A stretch of DNA of 63,056 nt, the filler included, from Psammoneis japonica (lineage: Eukaryota), in assembly GCA_008632985.1 (NCBI GenBank). It is 4 parts of 4 records of this genome, joined end to end, with 100 filler letters (N's around TTAATTAATTAA, not from the genome) between each part and the next. Parts side by side here need not be neighbours in the genome. Positions count along the whole stretch, not along the records: positions 1 to 23,990 come from QPGO01000244.1; 3 more parts are not named here. One strand, written 5' to 3'. Within the stretch, counting starts at the first letter, position 1; each line of letters opens with the position of its first letter. Shown here in pieces: positions 1-44,275 of this stretch. The position numbers and the translations under genes are program-made. The notes under the pieces are model-generated. The model was not told the DNA's origin. It ran no database searches and saw nothing but the letters and a program-made list of their open reading frames with translations.

Positions 1-617
1 TGTGTTGGACTTCCTGACTGAGGAAATGGCCAAGGAAATTGTTCCAAACAGCTGTGTCACATTGTCTTGTGAATCTGAGGAGGGATTCTATCTGCTGCAA
101 TGGGATGAACTCCCCCACAAAGCACAGGAGGACAAGGTGTGGAAAGAGTTTGACCCACCCATGGCCGGTGAATGGGTTTGCAAGGGAACGCATCTTAACC
201 CTGTTCCACGGGCCAGAGGATGGCACACTCCCGGTGATGCTGAGGAATGTGAGACAAGAGTGTTGCTCAAGCAAACTGCAATTGCCGACATTGAGCTTGA
301 TGAACCATCAGCCAATCTGGAACTGCCAAGCACGTGCAACAGGAATGAGGCTTCACTTCTTCATCCACGTCATTTGAGTGATGACAAGCATGAAGGAATT
401 CTGGATGCCATCCAACAGCAGGAGGCAATGGATCATTTTGAGGACTGTTCAGACGAGGTGGAGGAACAAGACATCAAAACTGGTGAGTGGGGGGGAGAGA
501 ATGACGACATGGAAGACACTGTGGAGGATGATGAGAGCACGGCAGGGGACAGTGACAGCGACAATTCGGACAAATAAAATGGCAATGGGAAAAGGAACAA
601 ACACTGTGATTGTCATT

Positions 618-1606
618 TTACATCACGCAACTAGAGTGGCCATCCAACACAAAAGCTTTCCTTTTTGCACACAACTTCTGCTGCACCGCCCCAGGAAGTT
701 CGAACTGGTGCACCATGAACACTTGTTGCAGACGCTTTTTAGCCACGCATTTCACCTCATGTTCCTCATTCCCAAGACACCAATTGAAACACTTGATGTC
801 CTTTGCTGGCAATGCAAAAGGGTGGTTGGAATCAAAGATCCATCCACGGTGCAAGGCAATGCAGTGGTTGTTCACAAGATGGCACAAAGTATGAAGTCAT
901 CATTGCAGGTCATCACGTCAAATTCACCACCTGCTGCAAGGGAAATTGTTCAATCCACACTGCCGCAAAACTTCATGTTTGAGTTCTTAGGCAGGAATTT
1001 TCCCTTCAAACGACCATTCAACATGTTCTTTGCAAACAACATGTGCTTGTTGTCAGTGTCAGCATAGTTGGCAGATGTTTGAATGTGAGAAGCAATGCAG
1101 TCTCTCATTTCCACGTCACCAGCACAATCAAGAACACTGGCCAGGGAGGAAAAAACGCAAGTGTCGTTTTGTCCTTGCAGGAATTTCACGGGTGGACCGC
1201 TCTTCGGCAAGTTGCTGTTCAATGGCATCAACACGTTTCCTTCCGGCAAGGAGCAACAACCATCCGATGGCTTCAATTCTTTCAAATCTTTCCACACATC
1301 TGGAAACCGAAACTTAAAATTGCACTCAGTCCAATCCAGGGTTACATGCACAGGACGGTTCCCCTCCAAGCTGCAAGCAATGAAATCAGCTCCCCGCCCA
1401 ACAGGTGGAAGTTTTTGAATCTCCGCTTCAGTCAATCTCTTCAGTTTGGCAATCTGTGGTGGGTTGCAAATTGATTCCACCTTGTTCTTAATCTCGTCCC
1501 TGCATTTTCGATTGAGTTGCTGGGGAACGTTTGGTTTGTGTTTGGCACGTAAAATGAGGCCCGCACATGTGTTCATGGGATGGCCATTCATTTCATTGCA
1601 TCGCAC
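618..1606 (-). pseudogene. Degenerate, frameshifted ORF with a putative papain-like cysteine-protease domain (repeat cargo)
   Basis: ORF 950..1606 has Q-x4-C 'FLQGQNDTCVFSSLAS'. The downstream frame 618..887 has 'HCIALHRGWIFDSN' (His...Asp/Asn). TpA-depleted. The fold assignment is inferred from motif shape only. Confidence 0.4.
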
Positions 1607-1923
1607 GTCAAACCATCATTCCCACAACATGACGCCCTTGTTTTTCCCTTCAAAGCAACCAAACAAGTGAGGAGCGGCTCCTTCAGAATTGCCAGGATGC
1701 TGACGCCTGCTGTTCCATTCACTTGGATCAATCCAAATGAGTTTTTTAACCTGCAACATCACTTGAGTGTCTTCGTGCTCACGCTCGAGTCGATCCCTTT
1801 CTTGTTGGTGTCGCTGCTCTTTGGTCAACCGATGCCATGAAGTGTCTCCTTTTGGCCTTGGTTTCAGGACAGAGCTGCGAAGGCCAATGAGATCCTCATC
1901 CTTGTGCACTCCAGTGATGTCTT

Positions 1924-2514
1924 TCAAAAGCTGATCTCCCGCTTCTCTTCTGCAGCTGGGGCTTTCTCCCTCTTCTCTTTTGCAGCCAGGGCTTTCTCCC
2001 TCTTCTCTTTTGCAGCCTTGGCTTTCTCCCTCTTCTCTTCTGCAGCCGCAGAAACTTCTTCCTTGTGTTCATCGTCCTCCTCGTCCTCAGTTTCCTCTGG
2101 ATCTTGCTCCTCCTGGATTTCGTCTTGCACACCGTCATCTTCCTCCTCTTCCTCCTCTTCCTCAGACAATTGATCCATGGCCCCATCTTCCTCCTCCTGG
2201 TTTTTGTCTCGCAGTTGCAACCTTGCAGTGCCAGCCTCGGCCTTTTGCAGGTCATCCGTCTCTTCAGTGCCCTCCTTCCCCTCTTCCTCTTCCTCCTCCT
2301 CCACCTCTTCCTTCAACCCTGCATCACGGACACTGGCGTGATGCACGCAACGATGGTGACGAATCCTTCTGCAAAACTTGTGCCGTGCAAGTCCAGGAGC
2401 TGCCTTGCACCAATCAGCAAGGTGAGCAAGTGGCTCTTTGAAATGGTCCTTCCTGCTTGGTCCGGCAGGGAAGTGAACTTCAACCATGTGTTTGTCTTTG
2501 GTGACGGCCTCCAC
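1924..2514 (-). pseudogene. Glu/Lys-rich low-complexity ORF remnant with a 30-bp tandem repeat (~1950-2050)
   Basis: Poly-Glu tracts and 'A(A/K)EKREKA' repeats. The + strand shows a repeating gctttctccctcttctc unit. Confidence 0.35.
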
Positions 2515-4259
2515 TAACTCGGAGCATCATTGTGGCTTGAAAGGCTTGCACCACTGGTCCGGCGGACAAGTGGTGCCTCTGCATTCACCATCAGAGGCAA
2601 TCCGCAATGCATGGTTGCACCACCAACCTACAATGATGTCAAACAAGGCCTCGGATGGCAGTCTGTCATCGGGGTCACATGGCCCAAATGAGAAAATCCT
2701 CTGGCAGCCACTCGTGCAACTTGTGAGCACTTTGCATTGTGCGTTGGTGGGAAGTTCGGGAATGCAGGGATCTTCCTGCATGTCATCATCCGACTGTTCA
2801 AGCTTCTCCCTTTTGTGAATGCTCGTCATGAAAAACACAATCGTCATTGTGATCCACAATTTTCTTCAACTTCTTACAGCTGATGCATGGTTTTCGACGT
2901 GGCTTTTCGTCCACCTGCTTCCTCTGAGCGATTTCGTTTGGAACAGAGCAATGGTTGCAGATTGAACCCCAGTGCTGTTTTGCAGATAGAACGGGACATC
3001 TTGTTTCACAGTGGAACTTGACGTGCAACCCCTTCAAAGCCAACATTTCAAAATTGTTCTTCACCCCCTTTGGAGACTTCATTCGTCACCAACTTTGAAA
3101 CACAGCCTCACCAAAAGGCAGCCACGCATGCGTCTTTAAATCTTCGGTCGACTTTTCATCATCGTGCGTTTCTAGGTTTTGAATGTTGACCAAAGATGCC
3201 AAGTGGAATCGGTGCTTGGCAATGCATGAATGATCAGCAATGCATCCTCCTTCAACAAGCAGTTCCACCCAACAGCCTTCATTCTTGCGGATCTCTGTTG
3301 CAACGTTCTGACACTCGGCGCTGAAATGAGGCAATGCCAAAACAATTGCAGAGCTCATTGGAGTAATCCTCTCCTTTGCACACAGGGCAACAGTGTTGCC
3401 TTGATCATTCATCATGAGATCATCCCAGCCCCAGTGTTTGCGGACGTCCGCCAGGTCGGAATGATCACTCATGGTGTCCGTGATGTCCTCAAAACCCATC
3501 ACTCCCATGTGATGAGACTTCAAAGTCTTCTGACAATGAAGACATGCATCCATCTTCTTGACAAACCACAGCAAATGGCTTGGGCAAGTCCAATCAAAAA
3601 AGGACATGCACCTCAACTCAACGGTGCAATCGATTCACTCTCATCACCCATCCCAACCGACACAACCGGAGACTCTGTCACATGGACGCAATCAACAAGC
3701 AGGCCAATGTTTGTCTTGACACGGTGCATCAAAACAGCAGCAACATTTTGCTTGTCCTTCACGGCACCCCTCATCAACATTCCTGATGGCACCACAACCA
3801 ACATCAAGAGGTGCTGGTTCTTGTCCTTGATGTGTTGGTTCAGTTGTGGTGATTCTCGGAGTTAAATTTTTCACAAAACCAATCGACAACAGTGTTGCGG
3901 AATGTGTTCCGTGTTTTGGCACTGTTGAACCCATCCAAACCATTCTTGTGATGAAGAACATGAAAGAGAGGGCTTGTCTTCTTTGTTCCACGATCTTCTG
4001 TGGTCAAGATGCTCAAATCTACAAGACCTTGAGGGCACTCAAGGGGATCAACTGCATCTTGGAGAGGCACAGTGCACCAAGTTTTGGCTTTGCCCTGCGG
4101 TGGGCAATGTTCCGCGAGTGCCTCGACGCAATGCTGGACGCAAAAGGAAACCTTCAACATGCTGGAAGAGTCATCGTTTGCTTGAGGGGAACTGCCCCAA
4201 CGGGACGCTGCTGGGAGGCTACTTTGGCCAATGTGTCCATGGCGAACGCACTGCTTTTG

Positions 4260-4500
4260 CACTCCTGTTTGTACGACAAATGCACTCCAGAGAGGGGGCC
4301 AACATCAGTCACTGCAAAAGTGATGCGGATGAACAGAGGCAGCCCACAAGGCAGTTCCAGATGCTGAAAAGCATCAAACAGCAAGCTGCACTCCCGCTTG
4401 TGCAACAAATGCACTCCAGAGAGGGGGGCAATGTCAGTTGCCGCGAAAGTGATGCGGATGAACAGAGGCAGCCTCCAAGGCAGTTCCAGATGCTGAAAAG
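4260..4500. repeat. Two-copy ~129-bp tandem repeat
   Basis: 'caaatgcactccagaga...cagttccagatgctgaaaag' occurs twice. Copies differ by, e.g., gtacgaca vs gtgcaaca. Confidence 0.85.
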
Positions 4501-7489
4501 TACAAACAGCAAGCGTCACAGTGAAAACAAACCAAGAAAAGTTTGTTCCAGTAGAAACTGTCACTCGGAGAATGCTCGGGCGAATGCTTGAGTTTTGTAG
4601 AAATTCCGAAGGCCCTGGTGCAAAACAACCATAAAACGAGACGTGAGAAGCAACCAGAAAAATGCACGTGCATGGTGACGCGAGCGACTTGCCGAATTCG
4701 AAACGAGAGAACACAAAGAGATGGTGTCATCCGCAATGACAGCAACTCTTTAGAGCCGCAATCGCATTGCGACAACAATGATGTAACTTTGAAATGAAAG
4801 GAACAGATGGTTCCACACAACCGCAAGGGCAAAGAGGGGGTTGTGGAGCAGTGACAGCGGTGTGCTGCATTGTGGCTGGTGTGTGTTGGGTGGACGGCAT
4901 GTGTTCGTAGATAGTCAGCATTGTTCTACACATCACCAGAAAAACATTAAATGCCAACTGACACGATTCTTCCTGTGACGCATTGTGCACCTTGGTTGTT
5001 GCACATGAGCATCAACATCACAAACACATCACGTCACCAAAACAATCAATGTTTGCACAAAGCCAAAAAGTGCGAGCTCTGCCGGGTGGAGACAAAAATG
5101 TTGCACTGAAAACTGCGTGGAAAATCTAGCATGATAAAAAGCAGAGCACCTGGAGCTGGAACAGGCCAGCATGCACTCTGGCCAGCTTGTTTGCAAAATT
5201 GCCACTTTTTCTGTTGGCAATCATCAGCACATTTGTTGCCCAGTGGTTTCAGCACAGAGTTTGCATGCAAAATTTTGTGGGCCCAATGTCACATGGGTTC
5301 CCACCTGCATCTGGAGCTCATCGGCTGCCGGCTGCCCATCACCAAAAACCTTTTTTGTCAGCACCCCACCAATGATGAGAGACCATTTTTGCTCAGCCCT
5401 GAACAATTTGTGAGTTTTCTTGCTCTGGTGCATGGAAAAAGAAGAGCAGCAGCAAAACCAGCCTTGTCATGTCCCCTTTTTGAGAAACACACATTTGGCA
5501 AAAACGCTCTTGAAAGCAGCACTGCAGCCCTCTGGCCTCCTTCAGCCAGTCAAACGGGGGGCTGCTGCGTGAACCACAAAAATTGAAAGCGTGATGAAAG
5601 CACAATTGAAAGCCAAAAGCCCATTGTGCATGAAAGCGTGTGTTTGTTGACCTTTCTGTGTGTGGTTTGGTCGACTTCCGGCTTGCCACAGACTTGCGTC
5701 ACATGCAAAAACAATTGAGCAGGAACACAAGGAAGAAGTCATTGCAAAAAAGACTTCTCAGATTCCTGATTCCAGCTCCTGGCACAGCTGGCTGAAATGG
5801 AAAGATCAGTCCTGCTCTTTTGTCTCTGGGGCCCAGTGCTGACACTGTGGCAGTGATGGGTCAACCATCGCAAAACAGTGAGGTCAAATGCTTGTCTTTC
5901 TCCTCAGGTCAAACAAATGCCCAGCTGATGGAAACTGAAATTGCTGTGTCTGTGTTGCCGTCAGTGTGACATTTTAGTGCGCTCATCTTCTGCGCGAAAT
6001 GTCGTACATTTGAGCACAGTGCAAGGACTCAAATCGCACCGGCAGGATGTGATGATGTGACGTGCCTTGCTTTTGTTCTCTGTTGATGCTTTGAGTGCAA
6101 ACACACCATGATGGCTGCCACAGATGCCGCCATTCAGGACGAGGACTTGACATCAACACAAACACAGGTCGAGTCTGTCATGGAGACTGCATGTTCCAAG
6201 CTTGAATCCTCGTTGTTGACAAGCAAACCTCGTCATCGTCGAAAGGCACAGTGGTGTGAATTGCTGGAAGTGTGGAAAGCATGGGCATGTTAAAGCAAAA
6301 TGTCCTGAAAACAAGAAGGACGAAAGCTCTCAGAATGTGGGCACTTTCCAGGTGATGGGATGGGCTGGATAACCTGATTGCATGCCCAAGAATCCCATTT
6401 CTAAATTGCAATTGCTTGTGCAAAGGAGTGTGTTGGACGTCAGATGGACAACGGCCAGATGATTGGCACTTGAAGAATGCAGCACGGTGTGAGATGTGGT
6501 GCGCATTTATGAGGCATCGCAGAATGGGGCAACGCACTTTCAAAAATCTGGTTCCCAGTGGAATTCTGCTTGCATGGAACTGGTGCCAGCATCTGCAAGC
6601 AGAACACAACAATGCTGCACTCATCACGACTGCAACACGGAAGTCTGTCATGTCGGGTGTGTCAACGTTGTCGCTCTTCTTGCGTGCACAAAAAACACAT
6701 CAATCCGCTGATGTTGTGCATGCAAATTTGATGGGATGCAGGATCTTTGCAAAATCTGGGCAAAAATTGTCCCTTCGTGCTTCACCGTGCTAAAAACCCC
6801 GTGACATCCTCCACAATGAGTGAAAATCCAAACTTTTCATCAAAATCTCTTGTCGCGTGCTCATTCAGTGCTTCATTGATGCAAACAAATGAGAAAACTC
6901 CAAATGCACTCCACAAAAAGTGAATCAAGTCCCACCACGGCCAAAAACTCTGCGTGCTTTCAGCACCAAGTTGTGCATGTCAAAAATCAGTTGTCACCAT
7001 CGCTCAATCAGCTCCCAAAACAACTCGATCATTGTCATCCAACATTTATGCTGCACTCATTGTTGTGCAAGTTGTCGTCTCGGTGCACCAGAACCCCCCA
7101 GTTGGCTGTTGTTGTCATGTGCGGCCATCGCTGATGTCGCGGCATCGTTGCCGTGATGTTTGTGTGTGTTGGAGTGAATTCAAATCGATCACTGTGAATT
7201 TCACAGCACATTCTGCATGCGCAAATTTTGTGCAGATTAGCGTGGGAACCGGATTTTTGAAAAGTGGGTTGCCCCATGACTCTCACTTTTTAGAGCAACA
7301 CTCAACTGTCAGCACACTGTGCATTTGTGGATTGTGCAACAGACAGGAGTCTCCAGGGGTTACAAATCCAAGACTGGGAAGGGAGCCAGCATGATTGTTG
7401 CAAGTTCATCAGCGCCAAGGGTGCCATGGCCAGGAAGTCATTGCCAAAGCTCCTCCGTGACGAATGGCATCATGGGATGAAGAAGCCTG

Positions 7490-7863
7490 TGTGGGTTTGT
7501 GGCAGTTTACGCCGCAGAGATAGAAACAGCAACAACAGACAATTTGGGAGGTGCGAATTGACCAGCTGCTTGACAACCAATGAGAATTTGTAAAGAACAA
7601 GAAGTGACCCGCATTTGCACCGGACTCAACACAGATGAACATGGTGCAAAGACTTGTCAGGAATGAGAAGTTCTTGATTGCATGAAAGAAGAACAGAAGT
7701 GAGGCTCAATTCTCGATTTGAACCCCAGACCTCCGACCTCATTCGTTTCTCGATCTGTGATTGGGTGAGTCGTTGATGGTGGTTGATGGCGGTTTCTGAG
7801 CGGCCATTGTCACACGCAGGACTTGATGGCACACTGACACATGAATGTGTGTGCATTCTCACA
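7490..7863 (-). repeat. 3' LTR of the copia element
   Basis: Aligns with 13544-13905. Has TG...CA termini and lies next to the PPT. Confidence 0.9.
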
Positions 7864-7889
7864 CTCCCTCACACTGAAATGTCCAAGTT

Positions 7890-10800
7890 GCCACCATCCC
7901 TGAACCAAGAGACGATGGCGAATGAACATCGCTGGGTCCGGCATTTTAGTCAGGAAGTTGGCCTGTTGGAGTTTGGTCCCAACAGCTTCAATCAAGAGAC
8001 GTCCGTTGGCGACTTCAGAGTGGAAGTGGTGACAGATGTTGTTGACATGGCATGTTCTTGGATGCATCTTGGGCACTTTTGCAATTTCAAGTGCAGCCGA
8101 GTTGTCTTTGAACAGCTTGCAGTGGACTGTTGGTGTCTTTGCCACAGGACAAAACTTCTCATTCACCTCCTCAAGGAGGTGCATGGATGCTTTAACATGC
8201 CTGGTGGCAGCCGACAAGGCCAAGCATTCACTCTCACTGCTGCTGAGAGCAAATTGAGTCTGTGGCTTGGAAGACCAGCAGAGAGGAGCCCCTCCACACT
8301 TAACAACATGGCCGCTGCGAGACTTTGCTGTGTTGGGGTCCTCTGCCACGATTGCCTTGTCCCAATTGCCACAGAAGTCAGCATCCACACAGCACTCAAA
8401 GCTCTTGGTGCCATCTGGAGGGACCTGAATGCAGTGGCCCTTGTCACGAGTCAGCAAAAAGCACCGTCCAAGGTGCTTGAGGGCTGCTCCATGGGATTTC
8501 TTTGGATTGGCGGTGAAGCGAGCCAGTTGGTGAGTTGTGTGCATGACATCAGGGCGAGCAGACTTCTCAAGGAAGTGACTTTGCCCACAACCGATCGGCA
8601 GTCGAAATCACAATCAAAAGGTTTGCCGTCAAAGTCAGGCCCAATGAGCCCAGCAGAGAGGGCTGGAAGCTCCCTGGTGGTCACTGCTTTCTTCGGCATT
8701 CCATCCTCGTTGACAAGTCCAAAATCAATGAGAATGCTGTTGATGAGGTGAGGCTGAGCCAAGTGATGTCGGTTCTCGTCCCTCTGAATCTTGACTCCAA
8801 GGCATTCGTCAATGGTTCCTTCGTCCTCCACATCGAATGTGGTTTGCATCAACTTGATGACCTTGTCAATGTTCGCTGCAGACTCCCAATCAAAGACAAG
8901 ACAATCATCTGTGTGGACCAGGAGGACTGTGGTTCCTCTGCAGAAGACACATTCATTGCACTCTGATGGAACAAATCCGAGTTGCAACAAACGGGCGCAG
9001 AGATGTTTGTGCCAAGTTCGTCCACTGTCATGTCCGCTGTAGATGTTCTTCTTAATGCGGAGACAAAATTTTTTGTGTGATCAATGCCAGGAAACATCAC
9101 TCCCCCAGGTAGTTCCATGAAGGTGGGCCGTGGAATGTCCGCTTGTGGACACGCAAGGACAAAATCAACCTGTCTTGAATGCCAGCCATGCATGACACAT
9201 GGACACAGGAACAGATGGATTGTTGTCCAGGACAAAGCAGGTGCACTAGTCTGGTCACAGTGCTTTCCGGGAATTTGCTTGTGCCCGCCAAGATTGAGCC
9301 GACTCTTCCATTTATAGACCTCTCGTGTGTGAATTCGGTGCTCGCGCTTCATTGACCATGCTGCTGGTGGGACAGTCTCGTCGTCAGGCACATTGGATTT
9401 CTCACACAGTTCCCAATGATCATGAGTGGTGTGGTCTCGAATTTCCTTCACCATGGCCTCCTTGAACTGCTCTGCATCTGGCTGCTTCATGGCTTCATGC
9501 ACGCACATGGCATCTGGATCAGCAGAGGCCTTCAAGGAGCAAGCGATGGGATCATCAAGTTCTGCTTGAAAATCTTGTTCTGAGCACATGTCCTGGTCCA
9601 GCACTTCGAAATCGGCTTGATGTGATGCAACATTGGCCTGCTGCTGCAGTTCCGACTTGATCACACGCTGTGTTGGCTGAACAGTGCATCCAGACTGTGT
9701 CATTTGCACTGCTGGTGGAGGCTCTGGTTCAGGGACTTCGGACTCCGGCAGTGATTCTGGGGTCTCAGAGACTCCCTCATTTGTTGCATTTGTCGTGTCT
9801 TCCTCGTCTTCCACCAACTCATCTGGTGCGGCTGCCTCCAAAGGCATTTCAGTGGGTTCGGCACCATGGTGGGCACTTGTCGTGATTCATGTGGTCTTGA
9901 CGCATGCCGTTGCTGCGGTCTTCTCATCAAGTCATGGTTGAAGTTTTGAGTCTTGGATGAAGTGGCAGATCTGCTGCCAGCGGGACTCAGTCGTGCGTTG
10001 GGATTTGAGTGTTTCAAACAAATTGTCAAACCTCATGTGACATTGTGGTGAGACCATCTTCGTGGCGAGATTTAAAACCAAAGCAACCAAATGAGAGTGT
10101 CTTGGCGATGGTCCAAGATGTGGACCAACTCGAGAGCAAGGGTCCCACTTGGGTGTGGTGTTGTTGGCCTGCAATTTGTTGTTGAGAACACAGGCTGGAC
10201 AGGCGAACGGATGAAAGTGCCAAATTTTGGGTTTCACTGGTGCTTTTGAGAAAAGTTTGATCGGCAACGCTTGTTGACCAGCTCTTGGCACACAGTTGTG
10301 CACAGCATTTGCGCATCAAACAGTGCAGGGCCACAGAGCCACCTCTGCTGCTGCTGGCCATCGATGCTTGGCGTGCATGAGTTGTGTGCGAGCCAAATCT
10401 TGGAGGTCACGGATTCTTTTCTCGCAAATGCTGTTTTGAAAATGTGCATTGACTCCACAAAAGGACATTGTTTGGTTTGCATCCTTCACTGCCTTGAGGC
10501 ATGCATTGTCTGCAAAACAACCGTTGTCGGCGTGGCAGTGACGAATGTGGACTCCGAGTGATCAAGAGTGCACTTCAAACGCATGCTTTGCCGCTGCCGT
10601 CTCAACTCCAGTCAAAGTTGTTTGTGGATGAACGAAAGAGAGGTCACTGCAGTGATCAACGAACAAAGCAGCGCATTTGCATCGTTTTGTTGTTGCCCAG
10701 CCTTTCAATTGGCCTGCTGGTCCTGGTGTTGTCGCGTCGACTTGATCCACCGACACGCACTGACCAGGCTCAGCAGCCTTGAACATTTTGTGTTGTTTGT

Positions 10801-12115
10801 TGTCCCCTTTGACCTTACATGGTGCTTTTGTCGCTTTTCCGAATCGACAGGCCGCACATTGAGGGACATGACACGTTGATGGACGATGAGGTAGGTCTCC
10901 ACTGCGAGCCACAGCTTGCATGCGCGGAAATGGGAGATGACCGAGCCGACAGTGCCAAAGTAATAATTCGTGGGACGGATTCGCAGGCGTGATGATTTCT
11001 TCGTTTTCAATGAATGGTTCGTCATCTGAACCGTCCTCTGATGGGTTGAATTCAACTGCATTGGGGTTGGACGAAGGCATTGATTGATCCGCATGGACAG
11101 CTTCCTCGTTTGGGCTAGTTGTGTCATCGGGTGCTTCGTCAACCGGAATGTCAGTCGGAACAGTGGGTTGCTTGGCATGGTCCGAGACCCCGTTGGGCAG
11201 AGGAACATGATTGTGAGCAACAGCAGCATCGGGAGCATCGTCGTCGGGCGGAATGAGGTGCGCTCGGAATGCACAAAAATTTTCGGCACGACGACAGTCG
11301 CAGGTTTCGCGTGACGCCTGAAGGGACGTAAAGGAAGGGGTGGAGCGAAAGACACCGACATTGCTTTTGTTGAGGGGGACCGACCGCATGTGTTTTCGAT
11401 CCATCCACTCTGGCATGATGCGGTTGCTTGTGGTCACAGCACGAGTCCCTTCTTGGGTGTGCTCTTGTGGCTTGAGAGCTTGAGCCAGGTGTTGCGGAGA
11501 CAGGAGTCGCATCAAGAGGTCGGGAACACAACACATGCCGGGCACATTCATGGTGTGAGTCCGTCCGAGGTCGTCTTGGATGGGCCAACAACCAGTGCCT
11601 TTGCATGAGGTCGACACGTTGCCGGATGCACCTTTGACGTTGACGCTGACCTTTGTTGGCGGCTTTATGAAGTCCGACATCAAGTTGGTCAGACAGTGTA
11701 AGGCGTGGTCATCAACACCGATCAAAAATGAGTTGGTGTCACAGCTGTGGTTGTTGTGGGTCGAATGCCGCTCCGTGTCGGTGGTGGAAGAGCATCCGAC
11801 AACAGGTTTGCAGGTGACATGGACCTTGATGACCTTGTGCATGACACACGTGCCACATTTGCGATGGACATGTCGTTGGCGGCAAGCAGAGCCTTGCTTG
11901 CACCAACTCTGAGGTCTTCGGACTCGAGGCTTGGTGTTGAAGTTGAAGTGGAGGGGCTTGGCCAAGTCAGACAAGGAGTGCAACAGATCACATGCATTGC
12001 CAATCACGTTAGCTGCGATGGGAGTTACTTTCATCAAGAGAGTTTCCACAATCTCATCAGTGCAGGCCAAGATTGCAAACAGTGCAACAAGCAGTGTGGC
12101 ACAGATCATCTCCAA
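7890..12115 (-). pseudogene. pol: copia pol pseudogene (protease, GAG-pre-integrase, integrase, RT, RNase H)
   Basis: Motifs: IGVDDHALHCLTN (PR-like), LLWHCRLGHLPF...CAAC (pre-INT), CVSVDQ and FVDHCSD (INT), WKSRLNLGGHKQ, QVDFVLACPQA and LLVHTDD (RT; YxDD read as HTDD), CCVDADFCG, SRSGHVVKCGGAPLCWSSK and ESECLALS (RNase H). Confidence 0.93.
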
Positions 12116-12130
12116 ACCTGACTGCCACCT

Positions 12131-13454
12131 TCATTCACCCTGAGCTTGCTCAGTCACGTTGTTGATGCCGATGTTCGCCATGGAAGCGGTGAGAGCATTG
12201 GATGGTGGCTGACTTGGATTGCTGGAGTTCCTTTTGTCAGCTTTCTGCTTGGCATGGCAGTCCCTGCTCAAGTGCTGTCCCCAGCACTTGTGGAAGTCAC
12301 AATGCTTCCATTCTTCTCCCTCAAAGGTCTTCACTTTGGGTTCTCCGGGCTGAGGTTCGACACTGCGCCAAGAGACCATTTTCCTTTGAATTTCGGTGCT
12401 TCACCTTTCTTGCATTTGGTGGCATTTGAGGACTTCTTGGCCTGGCTGGCATTGGAAGGTTTCTGGCCCGATGACTGTTGGGGTGACCTGTGCGAGCATT
12501 GGTTCCGGAGGTCGTTCACTTTGGCGCGAAGAGCGATGATTTGCGCTTGTTCCTCAGTTGGTTCGCTCCACTTTTCATTGAGAATGAGAGCTTGATGCTT
12601 CTTCTCAGTGCAAATCATGAGTTGCTCATGGGCAACATCAGTCCATCATTGCAGTCGTCATTGTTTTTCTCCATGTGCTTGGTGAAATTCTTGTCCGCAC
12701 ATGCTGCACATCCCTTGAACAGGTTCGTGATGAGATCGTTGGACGTCTCACCTCGACTCGACAGGGATTTGATCCAGTCCCTCACATGCTCGTTGAATGC
12801 CTTGATGTCGTGGTTGGCTGCATCAACCATGCACTCATCCAAGGAAGCAAGCTCGGATTGGATGTGGGAGGCTGCAGCACGAGTGTCAATCTCGGCCTTC
12901 GAGAGTGGGATCTTGAGGTGCAATGTGCCGCAATCCACATCTCGGACACGATGCTGCTCAGATTTGTCAGCCAGAACTTGCTTGGCAGCTTCATCCACCG
13001 AGTTGTGAAGGCACAGATGCAACTGACAGTTGTTCTGGGATCCGCGATTCTGCCCGTTTGTGCAGGCAGCGGATGCCGTGCGGATCTGCTCCGGCGTGAT
13101 GTTTCTGCAGGACGTGAGCATGTTTCGGTTCTCCGCAGTGGCTCCAGCCACTCCCTCATTGACATTGATGGTCAGAATGTTGTTCCAGCCAAAAGCTTTG
13201 GACCTTGTGCGAAGCTCATCGAGCAGTGCGCGGATGTCAGGCTTCAGGGTGTTGAGCGTGGTCGGTGGGGGTTCAGCAGCTGTCTTGAACACATCGGCAT
13301 CACCTCGGCGACTGCAATCAAGCAGTGCATCACGGGCTGGAGCTGGTGAGCGAGCAAAATTGCCAGCTGGAGGGTTGTTCTGGGCTTCGACAAGAGGTTG
13401 GATGGCAGCAGGAATGGCTGCAGCAATCGAAGCTGCGATCTGCTCGGCGTTCAT
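12131..13454 (-). pseudogene. gag: copia gag pseudogene (frameshift near 12615)
   Basis: ORFs 12615..13454 and 12131..12618 lie between the 5' LTR and pol. C-terminal zinc-knuckle-like 'WKHCDFHKCWGQHLSRDC'. Confidence 0.8.
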
Positions 13455-13520
13455 GGTGTCGTCGTTTCGGCGTCCACGACATTGGGCTCTGGTTTCTGCA
13501 ACAATTTTGAACTGAGTCAG

Positions 13521-13543
13521 GTCTCTATAGCGCAGAGGAAGCG
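13521..13543 (-). promoter_or_regulatory. Putative primer-binding site complementary to a tRNA 5' end/D-arm
   Basis: Lies immediately inside the 5' LTR. The + strand GTCTCTATAGCGCAGAGGAAGCG has the layout of tRNA positions 1-24, with an initiator-Met-like D-loop (AGAGGAA). Confidence 0.55.
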
Positions 13544-13905
13544 TGTGGGTTTACGGCAGTCTATGCCGTAGAGATAGAAATGGCAACAACAGACAATTTG
13601 GGAGGTGCGAATTGACCAGTCGCTAAATTGTGAGAACAAAAACCACTCTGCTCGACAACCAACGAGAGTTTGCAAAGAACAAGAAGTGACCCGTATTTGC
13701 ACCGGACTCAACACAGATGAACGTGGTGTAAAGACTTATCAGGAACGAGAAGTTCTTGATTGCATAAAAGAAGAACAGAAGTGAGGCTCAATTCTCGATT
13801 TGAACCCTGGACCTCCGACCTCATTCGTTTCTCGATCTGTGATTGGGTGAGGAGTCGTTGATGGTGGTTGATGGCGGTTTCTGAGCGGTCATTGTCACTG
13901 ACACA
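13544..13905 (-). repeat. 5' LTR of the copia element, outer end truncated
   Basis: Aligns with 7490-7863 but lacks the outer ~20-25 nt and has internal indels. No target-site duplication identified. Confidence 0.88.
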
Positions 13906-13970
13906 ACGGGCTTGATAAGCTCAAGGTAAACATCGCAGAGATCGTCGATCCAGAGAGAATACGCAGCCTG

Positions 13971-14653
13971 TTGAGCATCTCCAAACTTCGTCAACATTTG
14001 GAGGGTTACTTGAAGAATTGTGACCTTGATTATCTCGAGAACTTGTGGGAATCGTTACGGCAAGATGTTGACAAGCTAGACCATGGGCAAAGGGAAGATG
14101 TGTTTCCTGTGACGTGTGACAAACCAAAGTGGGATTTTGACTTTGTAACCAATGTCAAGTACATGGTCACAACGATGGTCAACAGTGACCTCAAGGCCAC
14201 GGCACTCAAGAAGCTTCAAGGACAAATGTGGAAGGTTGGGTATGATTCGGGTCTAACCAAGGGATACATTTATGCCGACTTTGTTCCATTCTTGCAACAG
14301 TGCAAGTCCCACGGCATTTCCGTGAATATCTATTCGTCGGGTAGCATTCAGGCCCAAAAGCTCCTCTTTGGCACTCCATCGAGGGAAATTTGTTGGAATA
14401 TTTGGACAATCACTTCGACACCACGTCGGGCAAAAAGATTGAAAGTAGCAGCTATAAAACCATTGCCAAGTCCATGGGTGTTGACCCTCGTGATATCATC
14501 TTTGTCAGCGATGCCGAAGGTGAATTGGTTGCGGCCAAGGAAGCGGGGATTGGCGTTCCCGTCATGAGCATCCGCCCCGGTAATGCGCCTCTCACGGAGG
14601 AGGGCAAGTCATTTCCAGCCATTTATTCTCTCTTGCAGTTGTGCGGGGCGTAA
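13971..14653 (+). pseudogene. ENOPH1: Enolase-phosphatase E1 (MtnC/ENOPH1, HAD family), 5'-truncated and frameshifted
   Basis: Motifs DLKATALKKLQGQMWKVGY, IYSSGSIQAQKLLFG, FDTTSGKKIESSSY, FVSDAEGELVAAKEAG and IRPGNAP. An apparent 1-nt deletion near 14371 splits the frame, and the N-terminal DIEGT motif is absent. TpA is retained. Confidence 0.85.
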
Positions 14654-15124
14654 AGAAGATGGAAAGTGGGTATTGATTTCACTGGGGGTATCATTGCTGG
14701 TGTCACCTATGACCTCTGTCATCTTAGATAGATTACTGTAAACTAGCCGAGATTCTTCATGTCAAGCGTCTCCATTAGTATGATTATGCCAGCAGGCGGA
14801 ATCGAAATGTCTAAAGGCGGAATCGAAATGTCTAAAGCAAAGCATTATTCTATCATTAATGTTGTCTAAACTCTCAAGTCGAGTCCATGTAGCGTGCATC
14901 TTGTCAATAAAGATGGAGGTTCTCAATGTTATATGGGGCATTTGGTTCTTTGTCTCCTCATTTTCTTTTCTGGCCCTTTCCATTCGTGATTTTGTGACCG
15001 AAAACGCCCAACGCGAAGAAAATTCAAACTCCTTCTATTATTGAGGGATGTTAATAGTAATGGCATCTGAAACTTATCAGTTTGTTACAGGTACTATGAA
15101 GATTGCATTGACACCTGAGGCCTC

Positions 15125-16240
15125 TCATACTTCACAAGTCTCTGTTAAACCAGTGTCCCATTCGTACTCCGCATCTCCCATCATCTCGGTAGCCAATTCA
15201 ATGGCGTTAGGGATTCGTTTCCACCGTGTACCTTTGGCCGCGAAATTCCAAATAATGGGCGCAACATGTTCAAGCTCATGGGCAAGTTGAAGATTTTGTT
15301 GTTTTAAGCGTCCTACGTATTGGCGAATGGATGCCTCACTGTTCAGAACTGCCAGGGGATCGTACGTGCTAAGACTCGCCACTACACGGAGGAGGCTGGC
15401 CTTCAGCTTTTCTGACCACGGAAACCCACAGTCAAATGGGGCTTTGTAATTGTAAAGCGCCCTGCCAACCACCAAGGGATCATTTCGGAGCTCCTCGGAT
15501 GCGTACTCTAAAGCGCTTCCTGTGCTGGACACAGCCTGTAACACAATTTCACGGTCTGCTTGGAGTTCTGCTGATGCAAATTGTAGAGCGGATCCATCGC
15601 TAGAGACGGCATTTAGAACAATATCACGGTCCGCTTGGAGTTCTTTTGATACATGTCTTAGTACATAGCCATTGTAATGAGTAGCCTTGAGCGCTTTCTT
15701 GACCATCTCGCGATCGCCACGGAGCTCTGGTGATGCATGCTGGAGTGCAGCGCCACAGTTTGACACGGCTTGCGCAACAATTTCGGGGTCAGCCTTGAGC
15801 TCCGGAGAGGCATAGGCAAGTAGATCACCGTTGCGGGAAATGGCGTGTTGTACAATCTCCCTATCAGCACAGAGCTGTTTGGATGCATAGGCAAGTGCTG
15901 AGCCATCGCTGCAGGATACAGCATCCATTACGATCTCCCGGTTGGCCCCCCACCGTTCGGGGTCTCCCTCTAGAAGGTCGTAGGCGCTTGTAGTTCCTTT
16001 GCCTACTTCTACCATCGCCTCTGCCACCTTGTCGTTATTGTGACTTGACCGCATGCCGTTAACCAATGTCCTTGTGTTTGATGTCTTTGACTGATTACAG
16101 GGTGGTCGTATGTCCCTCGTTGTAGGCCCTAATTCCCTGCCATCTCCAGGGTTCTGCATCAAACGTGCGTTCACCAAACATGCACGACTCATCGAGGCAA
16201 GAACACGACTCATTTCCCAAGTGGCAAGTGACTCCCTCAT
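15125..16240 (-). CDS. DUF4116-type tandem-repeat protein
   Basis: About 7 repeats of 'AL(Q/A)(Y/F/H)ASxEL(K/R/Q)ADREIVxxAV'. Intact frame with normal Tyr use. Start codon uncertain. Confidence 0.8.
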   Translation of the reverse strand: MRESLATWEMSRVLASMSRACLVNARLMQNPGDGRELGPTTRDIRPPCNQSKTSNTRTLVNGMRSSHNNDKVAEAMVEVGKGTTSAYDLLEGDPERWGANREIVMDAVSCSDGSALAYASKQLCADREIVQHAISRNGDLLAYASPELKADPEIVAQAVSNCGAALQHASPELRGDREMVKKALKATHYNGYVLRHVSKELQADRDIVLNAVSSDGSALQFASAELQADREIVLQAVSSTGSALEYASEELRNDPLVVGRALYNYKAPFDCGFPWSEKLKASLLRVVASLSTYDPLAVLNSEASIRQYVGRLKQQNLQLAHELEHVAPIIWNFAAKGTRWKRIPNAIELATEMMGDAEYEWDTGLTETCEV

Positions 16241-16974
16241 TGTTGTTTGTCACCAATTGCTCTTTCCCGCCAGGCAAATAATAATCTTGAAGGTGATAAT
16301 GGCAGCGGCGGCGATTTCACCAATGCTGGTTTGATTGTGGGATTGGTGGTGGCGGTTCTCGCACCAGCCGCGGTGGGTTTCTTTGCTTGGCGGAGACTGC
16401 GAAACAAGCCCACAGAACGAGATGAAGATTTTGCCGAAAAGGATTCTTTGGAAATGAATCACATGGAACATGCGAAAGTTGTCGAAATGCCAGATGATGA
16501 TTCCTCCTCCTTTACGGCAGCACACGATTCGGTCGAATTGCAGTTCGATGTCAATTCCTGCAGTTTGAGCAGTGCCGACAACTGCTCACAGCCTCGCATC
16601 CGACGAACCACCACTCCGCTGACCAAATTGCCCATGAGTTGAAGTGAAATGGCTGCAAACCGAAGCCGTGATGACAAAGATTTGGATGACGATGCCGCCA
16701 ACTGTTCCTTTTGCAATGTGGGTGGCAGCGATGAGTTGCGCGTGGCGCACCCATGTTGAAGACGGATCCATTCTTGCCAATCGACGATGATGATGACATG
16801 CCATTGGCAAGAACGCAATCCAGCAGAAGCAATGAAAGCAAGTGTCCACTCTCAATGATGAGCCAAGGTTGAGGTGGTGCAGTGAGGTCTGTTCCCATGG
16901 CTGATGCTGCGGCTTTCGCACCTGCGCCGCAACAACTGCAGCAGCTGCTGCAAGCAGTGTCACCAATTGCTAGG

Positions 16975-17205: not shown

Positions 17206-18429
17206 ACTAGTTAACCCTGGCTGCAAGAGCCAACAAGATCTGCCAGCTCTGCACCAATGGTGCTGACAACTCAAACTTGGCAGGCTCTGTCACCGATTCA
17301 CCCCAAATTGAATGGTTTGGATTGCTCTCCAATGGCAGAGACGTGCTTGCTCCAGGGGAAGGCACTGACCCATCCTGTTCTTGCTGTGTTTCCTTTGTTT
17401 CACTCAACTGAGAATCACCAAGAACAGACACATCTTGAAGCATCTCTTCTGAATCACCCAATGTCACAGAATCAGGCAGCCTTCCTTCTTCAACAGAAGA
17501 TGAGTCATCTGACAACTCCTCCAGGGGAGACGAATCGGGTGGCATGGTCAAGATGGCTGACACAACTTTGCATCTTAAAGAACAACAATGACAAGATTGC
17601 ACACCAATTCTCACAACAGCACTTTGGCAGCCATCTATGATCTAAAGGCATTCGTTGAAAAAGTCTCAAAAGGATCATCAGCTGGAGTGGTGGCATTTCC
17701 TTGCACCATTTTTATTTCACCCCCCATTGATTGCCCTGCCCAGCCGGAGGACCACTCCCCATTGGCATCTGAGGAAAGCCAAAACCATCCTGAGGCGGCA
17801 TCATGTTGCCATTGGGCTGCACCATGGGTTTCATTTGATGTTGTTGAGCACCCATGTTTGTGGGAAAGCAGCCGGAATTCTGGGATTCATCTGCACTTTC
17901 AGTGATTGAAAGCTGCAATTGCAACACAACAATCAATCAGCAACTTTGTTGCACCAAAAGTTGACAGGTGACAATCAGTGTGTTGGAAAGATTGTGAGCA
18001 GTTTTTATGAGCAGATGCAGCTGCTGTCTAAAAGAAATGCAAAGTCAAACAAGTGCGAAGCTGAGATTGAACATCGCATTTGTGATTCTGAATTGCGCGG
18101 GACTTGAGACTGAACATCATGTCGCGGTTTTGAATCCTGGATCTCGGATTTAAATCATGGAGGTCCGATGTTGTTGCAAACATGCAAGTGTGGATGTGCT
18201 GTCACAAAGTTGCCATTCTGCATCATCATGTTGGGGTTCATGCCAGTGGGCATTGCTCCTCCTCCGCCCATCATCATGTTGTTGTTTTGCATCATCATCA
18301 TCATGTTTTGTTGCTGCTGCATCATGGCCAGATTCATGTTGTTCAAACCAGCTTGCTTGGATGGGCATGTCATGTCCACCTTGGTTCAGCAAAAAACTGC
18401 TGTTCCCTGCAAAAAGACGCATGCACGGT

Positions 18430-18891
18430 GCGGTGGATGACTGGCAGACAAGCATTGATGTGGTTGTGTTCAAGGGGGGGCAATCTTGCATTGATGCAAA
18501 CAACAAGCTTGGGTCGTTCATCATTTCTGGGGTCCAGTGGCCACGAGTGGGGGAACCAAAAGTGGACGTTGCCTTTTCCCTGGACACCAATGGTGTTCTC
18601 AATGTGTTGGCTCATGATCAAGTCATGGGTGCTGAGGCAAATGCAACCATCAAGGAGGAAAAAGGGCGCCTCAGCAAAGAAGAAATCGAAAGGATGATTG
18701 CCAATGCGGAGAGATGCAGGGCACAAGAAGACCAAGTGCTGGCTGCCAAAACCTCACACAAGAATGCATTGGAAGAGACACTGTTCATGGCTCAGTCCAA
18801 AGCCATCAGTGATGATGACATGAGGGAATTGGAAGTTTTGATGGACTGGATTGAACTGGACACAGTGATTCTGCCACTTTGGAAGAAATGA
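18430..18891 (+). pseudogene. HSP70: HSP70 C-terminal (substrate-binding/lid) gene fragment
   Basis: 'ANNKLGSFIISGV...GEPKVDVAFSLDTNGVLNVLAHD...KGRLSKEEIERMIANAERC...KNALEE'. No ATPase domain. TpA-depleted. Confidence 0.88.
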
Positions 18892-19339
18892 AGGAAAGGG
18901 GCAAGGTTTTGGAAGACAGATTTGGTCTCATTGTGTCGGCCCAATTTAGTTGAATTTCTGCCTTTTGATCTCACATCCTGCAAGGACACAGAATGCAAAA
19001 TGTTGCCAAAGTGGATCTGACGCACTTTCACAAGAAACAGTCAATGTTGAGTGTCACCATGACTCAGCCACTTTGCAACAGATGAAATTGCTGATCCAAC
19101 TCCATGCAGTGTGGAGAGAGCATCAATGTCCCTCATGAATGACTCCCAAACAAACGGAGCATCAGCATGGGTGCCACCACAGTTGCTGTCCCATCCGCAT
19201 CGCTCACGTTCTGCTGCAATTGTTGCAGTGCCAGTTGCAACACTTGACATGACAGACAACAGATTTTGTTAGAATGAGCAACAGAGACAATTGAAAAGAG
19301 CATGGCACACACACATGAACATTTGTTCATACATGCCTT

Positions 19340-19690
19340 GTTCCCAATGCGGACTCTGACTGGCCACACTTGGAATGAAAACCATCAAGTGTGCCAGATC
19401 CAATGCAGCAAAGGCTTGAGAGGGTGACCAATGTTGCAACACCCCCAAAATGAGATCCAATTCCTCTTTAGAAATCAAGGCTGAATGTCTTTGATTTGTG
19501 GCCACCAGAGTTTCCACAAGGCTGTCCAAAATGGAGAAATCAATCTTGTGACTCTCGTCTTGAGCATTGTTGAATTCAAGCAGCTTTGCCTTCATTTTGT
19601 CCATGGCAGCAACAGCATTCTTTTCTGCCAAACCAAATGACTTGTGTCCCTTGAAAATGGCAAATGCTCCAACAACAGTGCAGGCGCAGC
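19340..19690 (-). pseudogene. PUL-domain (PLAA/Doa1-like) gene fragment
   Basis: 'KMKAKLLEFN...ILGVLQHWSPSQAFAALDLAHLMV' resembles the PUL signature KL.EFN...W....FP.LDL.RL. Confidence 0.55.
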
Positions 19691-20488
19691 TGATGGCAGC
19701 ACTTCTCCAAGAGTCAGTGCAGCATGTCCAATGCACTGTTGGGTGCAAGCAGCCACATCCCGCCAAGTGGTGCTGTGGCAAAACGTGATCATCCAAGCAA
19801 GCGCTGTGCTGCCATGAATGGATTTTTGCCATTGTTGTGACCAATCTGCAGTTTGGCCAATCCACAGTCGGGTGTGTCCACCTCAATCGGAAGGATGTGA
19901 TTCCAAGAAAAGGGCCACAATCATGGGTTCCTGTGGCATCGCTGTCTCCACCAGCAGTTGACTCATTTTTCAGATTGATGAATCATCAATCCAAGGCAAG
20001 GGGCCCTTGTTGGTCAGCTCCAGTGGAGCCCAAAGAACCGCCACCTGGAGGCTGTTGGCAACAGTGCATCAGTCAGGCACGGGGCAATCACCGCCATGTT
20101 TCACAGGAAAAAAACAGCTGCTGTAAAATGAGACAATGTTTTTTTTTGCAAATGCATGTGATTCATGGAAAAACACTCAAACGGCTTGAGCACGAACTCA
20201 CTGTGCATCACAACACGCTGACCACCACAGCAAAATTTGTGACAAACAAGCCCTTTGGGGGGCAGATGCACTCAGGCCCTGCTTTTCATGTGGCTGAAAA
20301 CAAAAGGGCAATGAGTCCTCAAATGACAGAGAGTCATTTGCACATCACAAGGGCCGTTTTACGAGCTCCCAACCCCATCACAACTCTCATTTACGTCAAT
20401 GCCAAATGCTTCATGCATTGCAACATACGAACTCTTGTACAACCCAGAGACCCGTCACAAACCCTCGCATGCTTGTGACCAATTTTAA

Positions 20489-23990: not shown

Positions 23991-24090
23991 NNNNNNNNNN
24001 NNNNNNNNNNNNNNNNNNNNNNNNNNNNNNNNNNTTAATTAATTAANNNNNNNNNNNNNNNNNNNNNNNNNNNNNNNNNNNNNNNNNNNN
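23991..24090. other. Artificial contig linker
   Basis: N-run + TTAATTAATTAA (stops in all six frames) + N-run, 100 nt total. Confidence 0.97.
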
Positions 24091-32500: not shown

Positions 32501-33220
32501 TGGTGCAACATGTTGGCAGTGCAAAAAGTGTCAATGCAATGACTTTGTGCTTGAAAGTTGCTGAGACCAAGCACCGTGCACCTGGCAGGAAAAGTCTCTT
32601 CTTCTGCCAGCTCAGCTGCATTGCACACAGTCAATGACATCACACAGAGAGTCAGCTCACAAGGCAGCTGAAATGGATCTGCCTGCAGCAGAGACAGCCA
32701 CACAGACCAGCACAGATGCTGCCATTTCCAATCAACAACATGGAGCAGGGAGGTGCAATGTGACCCGGCAAATGAAAGATGCCAAATTCGCAGCTGTTGA
32801 AAAATGCAAAGTTGCCATTTCTCATCAATTTTTTTTGCCAGAAAAGTGGCAGGACTTGGTGTCTGACATTGGTCTTGTGGACATTTCAGAGCAGGGTGCA
32901 ATGACTCTGTGCTTGAAAGTTGTTGAGACCAAAGTTGCCCCCAGCCACAATTGTTTTTACATTTGGTGCAACATGTCTTCCTGCATGTCAGCAACAACAT
33001 TGCAGTGCAAAAAGTGTCAGTGCAATGAGTTTGTGCTTGAAAGTTGCTCAGACCAAAGTTGCCCCTGGACACAATTGTTTTTCACATTTGATGACTGAGT
33101 GTGGTGCATCACACAGAGTCAGTGCACAAGGCAGCTGTTGAGACCAAAGTTGCCCCTGGCCACAGTTGTTTTTGCATTTGGTGCAACATGTCTTCCTGCA
33201 TGTCAGCAACAACATCGCAG
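29590..33220. repeat. Complex satellite with higher-order structure
   Basis: Dozens of copies of the core 'tgcaatgactttgtgcttgaaagttgctgagaccaaagttgcccccagccacaattgtttt' with alternative linkers. A ~280-bp insert occurs three times (~31010, ~31650, ~32570). Confidence 0.95.
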
Positions 33221-33319
33221 GGCCAACCCAAGATTTTGGTGTGGCTTTGCACTGCCGTTGCCATGCCAAAGTGAGCCAATTGTGTTTCTTAATTCAATTT
33301 CTCTACAAACAATGAACGC

Positions 33320-44212: not shown

Positions 44213-44275
44213 NNNNNNNNNNNNNNNNNNNNNNNNNNNNNNNNNNNNNNNNNNNNNNNNNNNNNNNNNNNNNNN

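Follow-up and report, generated by a model that had tools for sequence, protein, structure and literature searches.

How did the two long terminal repeats (LTRs) of one retrotransposon come to differ by transitions alone, most of them at TpA and CpG? The question is raised by a Ty1/copia-like element in a 63,056-nucleotide stretch of DNA (hereafter the window) from Psammoneis japonica, a probable diatom (GenBank assembly GCA_008632985.1). In retrotransposon replication both LTRs are copied from one RNA. Here we report that this LTR pair can be seen, with the support of the sequence around it, as a small sample of a domain-wide erasure of TpA combined with CpG decay, and that the TpA erasure is a more extreme variant of a phenomenon described once, in another lineage.

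The LTR pair and its mutation spectrum

The LTR copies were found by repeat search and then globally aligned over 325 positions. With the sequence between them they make up the following features:

7489–7813, minus strand: LTR copy 1, the 3' LTR of the copia element (325 nt; TG...CA core at 7490–7812), placed by repeat search and global alignment
7814–13542, minus strand: degraded copia interior, in the order gag, gag_pre-integrase/integrase, SH3_retrovirus, RVT_2 and RNase H region, in several frames
13543–13898, minus strand: LTR copy 2, the 5' LTR of the copia element (356 nt), placed by repeat search and global alignment

The copies are direct repeats 6.05 kb apart, with TG...CA ends and a core running from TGTGGG to TTGTCA. 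They differ at 20 substituted bases, every one a transition, and by indels of 28 bp and 3 bp in which copy 2 carries the extra nucleotides; a 21st difference in the alignment (7814/13899) lies outside the repeat and was left out. Given an expected transition:transversion ratio of 2:1, the chance of finding no transversion among 20 changes is about 3e-4 by our own arithmetic. Seven differences are TA-type, with TA in one copy and CA or TG in the other (7499, 7515, 7591, 7612, 7647, 7656 and 7684), and six are CG-type, with CG against TG or CA (7500, 7510, 7571, 7581, 7641 and 7664). Two are doubles with CA in one copy and TG in the other (7527/28 and 7726/27, four substituted bases), and three are other transitions (7507, 7586 and 7804). 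The preliminary description, based on manual alignment, had counted 18 differing sites without transversions; formal alignment yields the same 18 sites (20 bases), and its tally of seven, six, two and three is reproduced exactly, the two indels being additional to it. Pyrimidine-purine (YR) steps hold 17 differences in 150 positions, compared with 3 in 175 positions elsewhere (Fisher p = 0.0003). On the plus strand the TA-type changes divide into four T/C and three A/G, and six of the seven fit TAY>TGY when one or other strand is taken.

The two copies have fared differently. Copy 1 retains 3 TA and 12 CG, and copy 2 retains 9 TA and 17 CG; by class, 7 of 9 TA sites and 6 of 17 CG sites have changed. 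Since copy 2 holds TA at six of the seven TA-type differences and CG at five of the six CG-type differences, one copy has lost both kinds: copy 1 is the heavily mutated copy and copy 2 the little-mutated one.

Judged by the protein domains that it encloses, the pair bounds a dead, degraded Ty1/copia retrotransposon on the minus strand. The domain order typical of copia is found on that one strand, where Pfam matches comprise gag_pre-integrs (E 1.6e-8), SH3_retrovirus (E 9e-5, below the Pfam cut-off) and RVT_2 in two frames (E 2e-8 and 1e-13), and 31 full-length copia polyproteins from public data align over 7896–12370. Two protein searches returned relatives at no more than 54% and 42% identity and no copies of the same family. 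An exact 36-nt LTR word had 0 matches among metagenome contigs, and a pattern search for related loci with the 522-aa open reading frame (ORF) gave 48 pattern matches, none of them confirmed.

The sequence of the window is also present, as exact pieces, in Logan contigs of public run X1, which may be the assembly's own source. Read-contig depth there is ~300–1200 over the element and 57 on unique flank, indicating a multi-copy family at ~10–20 times unique depth. With 1090 Logan contigs placed, family copies differ from the window's element by transitions at 1099 places and by transversions at 237. Individual variants discussed below come from 40 of 1338 variant rows, 22 in the interior or LTRs and 18 in the flanks; among them, one lies in an LTR (7737), and it is not a site at which the LTRs differ.

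Direction of change

Wherever polarity can be read, TA is the starting state. The 31 copia relatives (Tyr 2.7–4.3%, Cys 1.0–2.0%) define 25 conserved Tyr columns, at which the element has Tyr in 2, Cys encoded by TGY in 17, His encoded by CAY in 4, and Phe and Ser in one each. Conserved Tyr has been lost at 23 of these 25 columns, against retention of other conserved residues at 416 of 513 columns, and the ORFs of the element contain 0–0.5% Tyr, 3.2–6.4% Cys and 2.9–6.8% His. Changes that cross codon boundaries tell the same story: all seven Ile>Val replacements read t|GTN and four of five Thr>Ala replacements read t|GCN, the codon being preceded by T, and all six Leu>Pro replacements are CCA. 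A third line of evidence comes from the end of a contig:

47604–48050, plus strand: hexamer array of ~72–74 units, at the contig end

The array contains 32 TTGGGG, 21 TCAGGG, 5 CCAGGG, 4 CTGGGG and 0 TTAGGG. If TTAGGG is the ancestral hexamer, as we take it to be in diatom telomeres, it can be interpreted as a telomere-type (TTAGGG)n tract that has decayed, each TpA having become TpG or CpA. The Tyr losses, the cross-codon changes and the array together imply that TA is ancestral, and by sequence comparison the loss of TA can be regarded as shown in the coding interior and the hexamer array. The preliminary description had allowed for the possibility that TG/CA would prove ancestral; the opposite was found in Tyr codons, cross-codon changes and the hexamer array alike.

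The left-flank repeat agrees with this polarity, as at at least eight sites the contig of another copy reads TA against TG or CA in the window, several of these being common to 4–5 contigs. Depth over this repeat, at 7000–7153, is ~1960. CpG decay is polarized in the same manner: 12 of 32 ancestral CGN Arg codons now read TGN or CAN, and at at least six sites among the variant rows used, CG stands in every other copy and TG or CA in the window.

A TpA-depleted domain

Over the whole window the observed/expected ratio (o/e) is 0.17 for TpA, 1.57 for CA and 1.51 for TG. When the window is divided into 500-bp bins, TA o/e lies below 0.2 in 98 of 126 bins (many at 0.00) and reaches 0.5 or more in 15 of 126; relative to normal bins, depleted bins are enriched 1.42-fold in CA/TG and hold 0.10-fold the TA. 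Most bins of 1–13.5 kb and 16.5–48 kb have TA o/e of 0.00–0.2 and mean CA/TG of 1.4–2.1, a few being slightly below 1.52. The window consists of at least four contigs joined at spacers (23991–24090, 48051–48150 and 59240–59339), each composed of 44 N, TTAATTAATTAA and 44 N. The TTAATTAATTAA element is a six-frame-stop spacer, and there is a separate run of 63 N at 44213–44275. Five regions can be distinguished:

1–13525: TpA-depleted domain; TA o/e 0.00–0.30 per 500 bp, CA/TG 1.4–1.8; sharp right edge
13899–16300: near-normal island; TA o/e 0.5–0.8; intact DUF4116 gene at 15125–16249 (minus strand)
16500–48050: TpA-depleted repeat domain, resumed; crosses the contig spacer at 23991–24090 and contains a satellite, a tandem repeat, a duplication and host-gene fragments
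48151–54230: normal gene island; TA o/e 0.56–0.72 over the pyruvate formate-lyase (PFL) gene and 0.26–0.47 in 53001–54500; CG ~1.0
54500–59239: TpA-depleted, CpG mostly near normal; TA o/e 0.03–0.39; CG 0.8–1.0 from 55.5 kb

Normal bins coincide with intact genes, namely DUF4116, a PFL/activase fusion and a formate transporter. In the depleted parts lie copia remnants, a satellite and tandem repeats, together with pieces of HSP70, PUL, Myb and MORN genes; these host-type fragments are Tyr-less and are placed as follows:

18154–18888, plus strand: host-type gene fragment, HSP70 substrate-binding
19272–19982, minus strand: host-type gene fragment, PUL
24390–25088, minus strand: host-type gene fragment, Myb/SANT-like
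41545–42090, minus strand: host-type gene fragment, MORN

The HSP70, PUL and MORN fragments contain 0–0.4% Tyr and 5.9–9.9% Cys, and the repeats of the MORN fragment begin with Cys at what is presumably a Tyr in the family consensus. Host-gene fragments that are poor in Tyr and rich in Cys within a TA-poor domain indicate that the process is not confined to transposons.

The right edge of the first depleted domain falls at the copia element. TA per 100 bp is 0.6 in the left flank, 0.9 in copy 1, 0.4 in the interior (22 TA in 5729 nt), 2.5 in copy 2 and 4.2 in the right flank. There is no TA from 12500 to 13525; TA then appears at 13526 and 13528, and nine times in copy 2.

Loss of TA is separable from loss of CpG, the extent of CpG depletion varying independently. 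Across 38–46 kb, CG o/e is 0.63–0.90 while TA is at most 0.14 and mostly below 0.07; across 55.5–59 kb it is 0.82–1.03 while TA is 0.08–0.27, and at 54.5–55.5 kb it is 0.36–0.55. In the oldest repeats CpG o/e is 0.04–0.3, in old repeats 0.04–0.6 and in genes ~1.0. The erasure of TA also reshapes the distribution of stop codons, with 1140 TGA, 73 TAA and 53 TAG in 49 kb of depleted DNA and 131, 74 and 80, respectively, in 7.5 kb of normal DNA. Because TAA and TAG have been lost, many long overlapping ORFs occur on both strands, and these ORFs are artefacts.

Sequence context, rates and dating

Survival of TA in depleted relative to normal bins, with strands pooled, depends on the 3' base: 0.046 for TAT, 0.069 for TAC, 0.138 for TAG and 0.196 for TAA. 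Among tetranucleotides, ATAT, ATAC and GTAC are nearly gone (0–0.03) and TTAA survives at 0.56. A model that treats hits on the A of either strand as independent, each with a rate depending on the base 3' to it, accounts for nine tetranucleotide classes with R2 = 0.975 and gives relative rates of ~5.2 for T, ~4.5 for C, ~2.0 for G and 1 for A. The preferred target is shown by these data to be T-A-pyrimidine. The same preference accounts, without any involvement of RNA, for the asymmetry of TGY over CAY at former Tyr codons on the sense strand (17:4, p = 0.007).

TpA loss is also the faster of the two processes, by roughly 2–5 times per site. The preliminary description had placed its rate close to that of methyl-CpG decay, which does not hold: 7 of 9 TA sites against 6 of 17 CG sites have changed between the LTRs, and in the interior 92% of conserved Tyr TA has been lost against 37.5% of Arg CGN. 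Its expectation that LTR dating would overestimate age is upheld, as the Kimura two-parameter (K2P) distance between the LTRs is 0.066 over all sites and 0.017 outside YR steps (the latter from three events only), an inflation of ~3.8-fold.

Proposed mechanism and alternatives

We regard a dead copia element, a domain-wide TpA-erasing process and CpG decay as together the probable explanation of this locus, and hold it with good confidence. In this model, two separate DNA-level transition processes would act on repeat-rich chromatin after integration. One would be fast and domain-wide, converting TpA to TpG or CpA, and would read as A>G on either strand with a preference for T-A-pyrimidine; the other would be a slower decay of CpG to TpG or CpA, of the methyl-cytosine type. 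Both would converge on CA/TG, and this convergence would explain the all-transition spectrum, the CA-versus-TG doubles and the excess of CA/TG. Copy 1, deep in the domain, would have had most of its TA and one-third of its CG removed, and copy 2, at the sharp edge, would have kept both. Changes on both strands, and the involvement of sequences that never pass through RNA, place the process on chromosomal DNA. In this respect the preliminary description, which had placed the changes in the chromosome and not in RNA editing, agrees with what we find: the LTRs differ from one another, repeats of non-transcribed type are affected, and the strand split is 4:3. Targeting through chromatin, and methylation as the basis of CpG decay, are both presumed. 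A transcription-coupled model was considered and rejected, as copy 2 retains TA throughout, its U5 end and the adjoining 17 nt included.

Several observations weigh against this explanation. The polarity of TA loss at the 20 LTR sites is inferred, if strongly, from their context rather than read from an outgroup LTR, and under TA loss the single changes are unequal between the copies (11 in copy 1 and 2 in copy 2; binomial p = 0.022), so that a positional difference in rate must be assumed. The switch in TA at 13526 falls ~17 bp inside the LTR/interior junction, a coincidence to within ~20 bp for which the model does not account. The "normal" baseline amounts to 7.5 kb and is mostly coding. 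The assignment to diatoms, of moderate confidence, depends on a single gene family that is prone to transfer. Adjacency across the spacers is not genomic, and the real intra-contig edges are only those at ~13.5, 16.4 and 54.4 kb. Both the ancestral hexamer and the MORN consensus are drawn from general knowledge. Finally, no 5-bp target-site duplication was found, the flanks of the element sharing only CTG.

As to the chemistry of the faster process, enzymatic deamination of adenine in DNA at TpA seems the most likely by analogy, performed by a TadA/ADAT2-like or other polynucleotide deaminase aimed at silenced or repeated DNA, as proposed for Bigelowiella natans, discussed below. The target might instead be T, with thymine at R-T-A in silent chromatin carrying a modification (5-hydroxymethyluracil or a J-like base) that makes it mispair with G and gives T>C. 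The footprint (TA to CA/TG, symmetric, with an R-T-A neighbor effect) would be identical for either base, and dinoflagellates, as general background, modify thymine preferentially at TpA. Signs of such a base in diatoms were neither looked for nor encountered. Adenine deamination is what the only experimental precedent proposes (main text of 10.64898/2026.01.13.699255), and we consider thymine an unlikely target.

The LTRs may also not be an original pair, a younger copy having replaced or converted copy 2, or the element being an inter-element recombinant; the LTR differences would then record family divergence and not time since insertion. The missing target-site duplication leaves room for such replacement or gene conversion, composition changes abruptly ~17 bp inside the LTR junction, at 13526, and a family at ~10–20 times unique depth offers donors. 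The flanks, however, seem to be one locus: one Logan contig joins homologues of both (7418–7476 and 13901–13988), 89 nt apart and without the element. This paralogous contig, the sole support on the point, suggests a single insertion into an older repeat. The assumption of the preliminary description that both LTRs stem from the same insertion thus gains the joined flanks and lacks the duplication. No tRNA-type primer-binding site or polypurine tract was recognized by eye in the element either, and erosion of all three signals by the same mutations is possible. We judge a non-original pair to be distinctly unlikely, and even if it were true the spectrum and direction of change would be unaltered.

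A very improbable third alternative, resembling repeat-induced point mutation (RIP) or decay at non-CpG methylation, holds that all changes are C>T/G>A at CpA and CpG, TA being derived and the element TA-poor at insertion. It has some attraction in that C>T is the commonest spontaneous transition, the polarity at the LTR sites was read only through context, and single changes would be balanced between the LTRs (6 and 7), as a clock would more nearly predict. However, with 23 of 25 conserved Tyr lost, the source cannot have been both functional and TA-poor, and composition opposes this alternative as well: TA o/e is 0.09 and AT 0.93 in the element, with CA+TG at 1.70+1.47 (3.17) against AC+GT at 0.99+0.96 (1.95). 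The types of change would also have to differ between the copies (1 and 5 in one, 6 and 1 in the other; Fisher p = 0.029). TA gain would require 6 events at 61 CA/TG sites in copy 2 against at most 22 at 1168 in the interior (Fisher p = 0.0019), that is, a per-site rate in copy 2 at least 5.7 times that of the interior.

Equally hard to credit is editing before integration, whether ADAR-like A>I on RNA or deamination of cDNA, with the LTR differences as unrelated ordinary decay: although ADAR-type enzymes favor a 5' U (cited in the main text of 10.64898/2026.01.13.699255) and Tyr codons became TGY more often than CAY on the sense strand (17 to 4, p = 0.007), the LTRs derive from one RNA and editing could not make them differ, the T-A-pyrimidine preference on both strands explains the 17:4 ratio, TA changes in the LTRs are balanced 4:3, and satellites, the telomere-type array, host-gene fragments and flanks are depleted within domain edges unrelated to the ends of the element.

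Comparison with known systems

The closest precedent for TpA erasure is the rhizarian alga Bigelowiella natans. According to the main text of the 2026 bioRxiv preprint by Mettrop et al. (10.64898/2026.01.13.699255), of 231 mutations that arose de novo in two integrated viral regions, 230 are A>G/T>C, all of them on TpA; 124 small TpA-poor clusters occur in 95 Mb, with enrichment of reverse transcriptase and DDE Pfams; and an ADAT2-like candidate enzyme is proposed. Both systems, as far as that text describes the first, share A>G/T>C change at TpA to give TpG/CpA, a regional and clustered distribution over foreign or mobile DNA, and long-term windows that are poor in TpA and rich in CpA and TpG. 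In the window this signature is found in the copia interior, where 21 of 25 conserved Tyr codons now read TGY or CAY, and in the hexamer array, and would extend to the seven TA-type sites of the LTRs. The systems differ in extent. In Bigelowiella, as described there, two viral insertions are affected, TpA is moderately reduced (Rho 0.45) and the mutations were shown de novo, whereas here, in a probable diatom host, ~49 of 63 kb are affected and TpA is near exhaustion (o/e 0.0–0.2). In the window the loss reaches LTR retrotransposons, satellites, a telomere-type array and fragments of host genes, and a 3' pyrimidine preference and separable CpG decay are seen as well. The main text of the preprint contains none of the terms LTR, retrotransposon, CpG, context, trinucleotide, telomere or diatom. 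In the portions of the literature available to us, nothing on TpA hypermutation in diatoms or LTR elements was found apart from this preprint, PMC11884799 being unrelated.

RIP in ascomycete fungi resembles the process in being transition-only and dinucleotide-specific, in inactivating repeats regionally, and in leaving repeats filled with missense changes beside neighboring genes that are mostly intact. It is opposite in chemistry and direction, since C>T at CpA makes TpA and the process in the window destroys it. By index thresholds quoted from general knowledge, RIP gives high TpA/ApT and low (CpA+TpG)/(ApC+GpT), and the element has the opposite values. Methyl-CpG decay is matched by six single LTR sites and up to two doubles, by 12 of 32 Arg CGN codons and by CpG o/e of 0.04–0.3, but accounts for only about half the differences between the LTRs; its hallmarks, change of CpG to TpG/CpA and CpG depletion in repeats, are both present, and methylation itself is a presumed cause. 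Deaminases of the ADAR and ADAT/TadA type share the A>G outcome and the requirement for a 5' U/T. The natural tRNA site of TadA is U-A-C, which resembles the T-A-Y preference seen here. These enzymes differ in acting on RNA, action on DNA in chromatin being hypothetical. The pattern expected of editing before integration, confined to retroelements and to one strand with identical LTRs, is not what the window displays.

Implications

We put at about even the chance that diatoms, and with Bigelowiella perhaps much of the stramenopile-alveolate-rhizarian (SAR) assemblage, possess a chromatin- or repeat-directed DNA editing of T-A-pyrimidine to T-G-pyrimidine on either strand. Such editing, if it exists, would leave next to no TpA in transposons, satellites, aged telomeric repeats or duplicated pieces of genes, destroying Tyr codons, removing TAA and TAG stops and raising GC; functionally it would be the mirror image of RIP in fungi. 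Were it genome-wide, TpA-specific hypermutation of DNA would have a second example, far more extreme than the first, on a different branch of the eukaryotic supergroup from the sole described case and in ecologically dominant algae. The process would then point to an unrecognized genome-defence chemistry, the editing of adenine or thymine in silent DNA. The T-A-pyrimidine footprint offers a concrete assay target for finding the enzyme.

There are practical consequences as well. Ages from LTR divergence would be inflated, here by ~3.8-fold. A majority consensus of a repeat family would be biased toward the derived CA/TG state, since identical TA sites are lost in parallel by different copies. 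Spurious long ORFs would arise in all frames of repeat-derived DNA, and such elements would escape homology searches, their Tyr, Ile and Leu codons having been rewritten.

Other repeats and genes in the window

The remaining features of the window are as follows:

29628–33226: satellite of 113–115 bp, with many transversions; CpG o/e 0.04–0.2
36027–37454: tandem repeat of 357 bp, four copies, lying in a long ORF that belongs to a second copia-like remnant
40871–44212 and 44276–47618: direct duplication of 3.3 kb, 99.67% identity, flanking an assembly gap
48698–51946, minus strand: PFL and PFL-activase fusion
52950–54428, minus strand: formate/nitrite transporter
58146–59291, plus strand: weak gag_pre-integrase match

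Copies of the 357-bp repeat differ by 18 CG-type changes, 2 TA-type changes and 1 transversion. The 3.3-kb duplication has 10 substitutions and 0 of TA type, TA having run out beforehand. Its origin may be subtelomeric, or it may be an artefact of assembly. The TTGGGG/TCAGGG motif also occurs at 44201–44212, ending the first copy of this duplication before the 63-N gap. Other repeat pairs (60 of 94 blastn pairs listed) differ mainly by CpG transitions and, TA being already exhausted, are uninformative on its loss. When the 31 copia relatives were searched against the window by tblastn, no other element was usefully matched, 58449–59235 giving 57 conserved columns of which 2 were Tyr columns.

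An FG-GAP gene with TA o/e of 0.18–0.20 (60.5–61.5 kb) was considered as a hypermutated gene and set aside as compositional, having 1.5% Tyr but 0% Cys. The genes of the window are uninterrupted ORFs, one sign that it is probably not from Bigelowiella. On the minus strand of 48698–54428 the transporter is followed by a single 1082-aa ORF comprising pyruvate formate-lyase, a glycyl-radical domain and a radical-SAM activase. The order focA-pflB-pflA is that of bacterial genes and is preserved here in a eukaryote. With the transporter, an Atlas search produced no usable taxon. Among the matches listed, the fused PFL-activase form also occurs in diatoms, Chromera and Polarella; its nearest named relatives are diatoms, at 61–71% identity (the best unnamed match reaching 74%), and the nearest Atlas cluster is commonest in Bacillariophyta.

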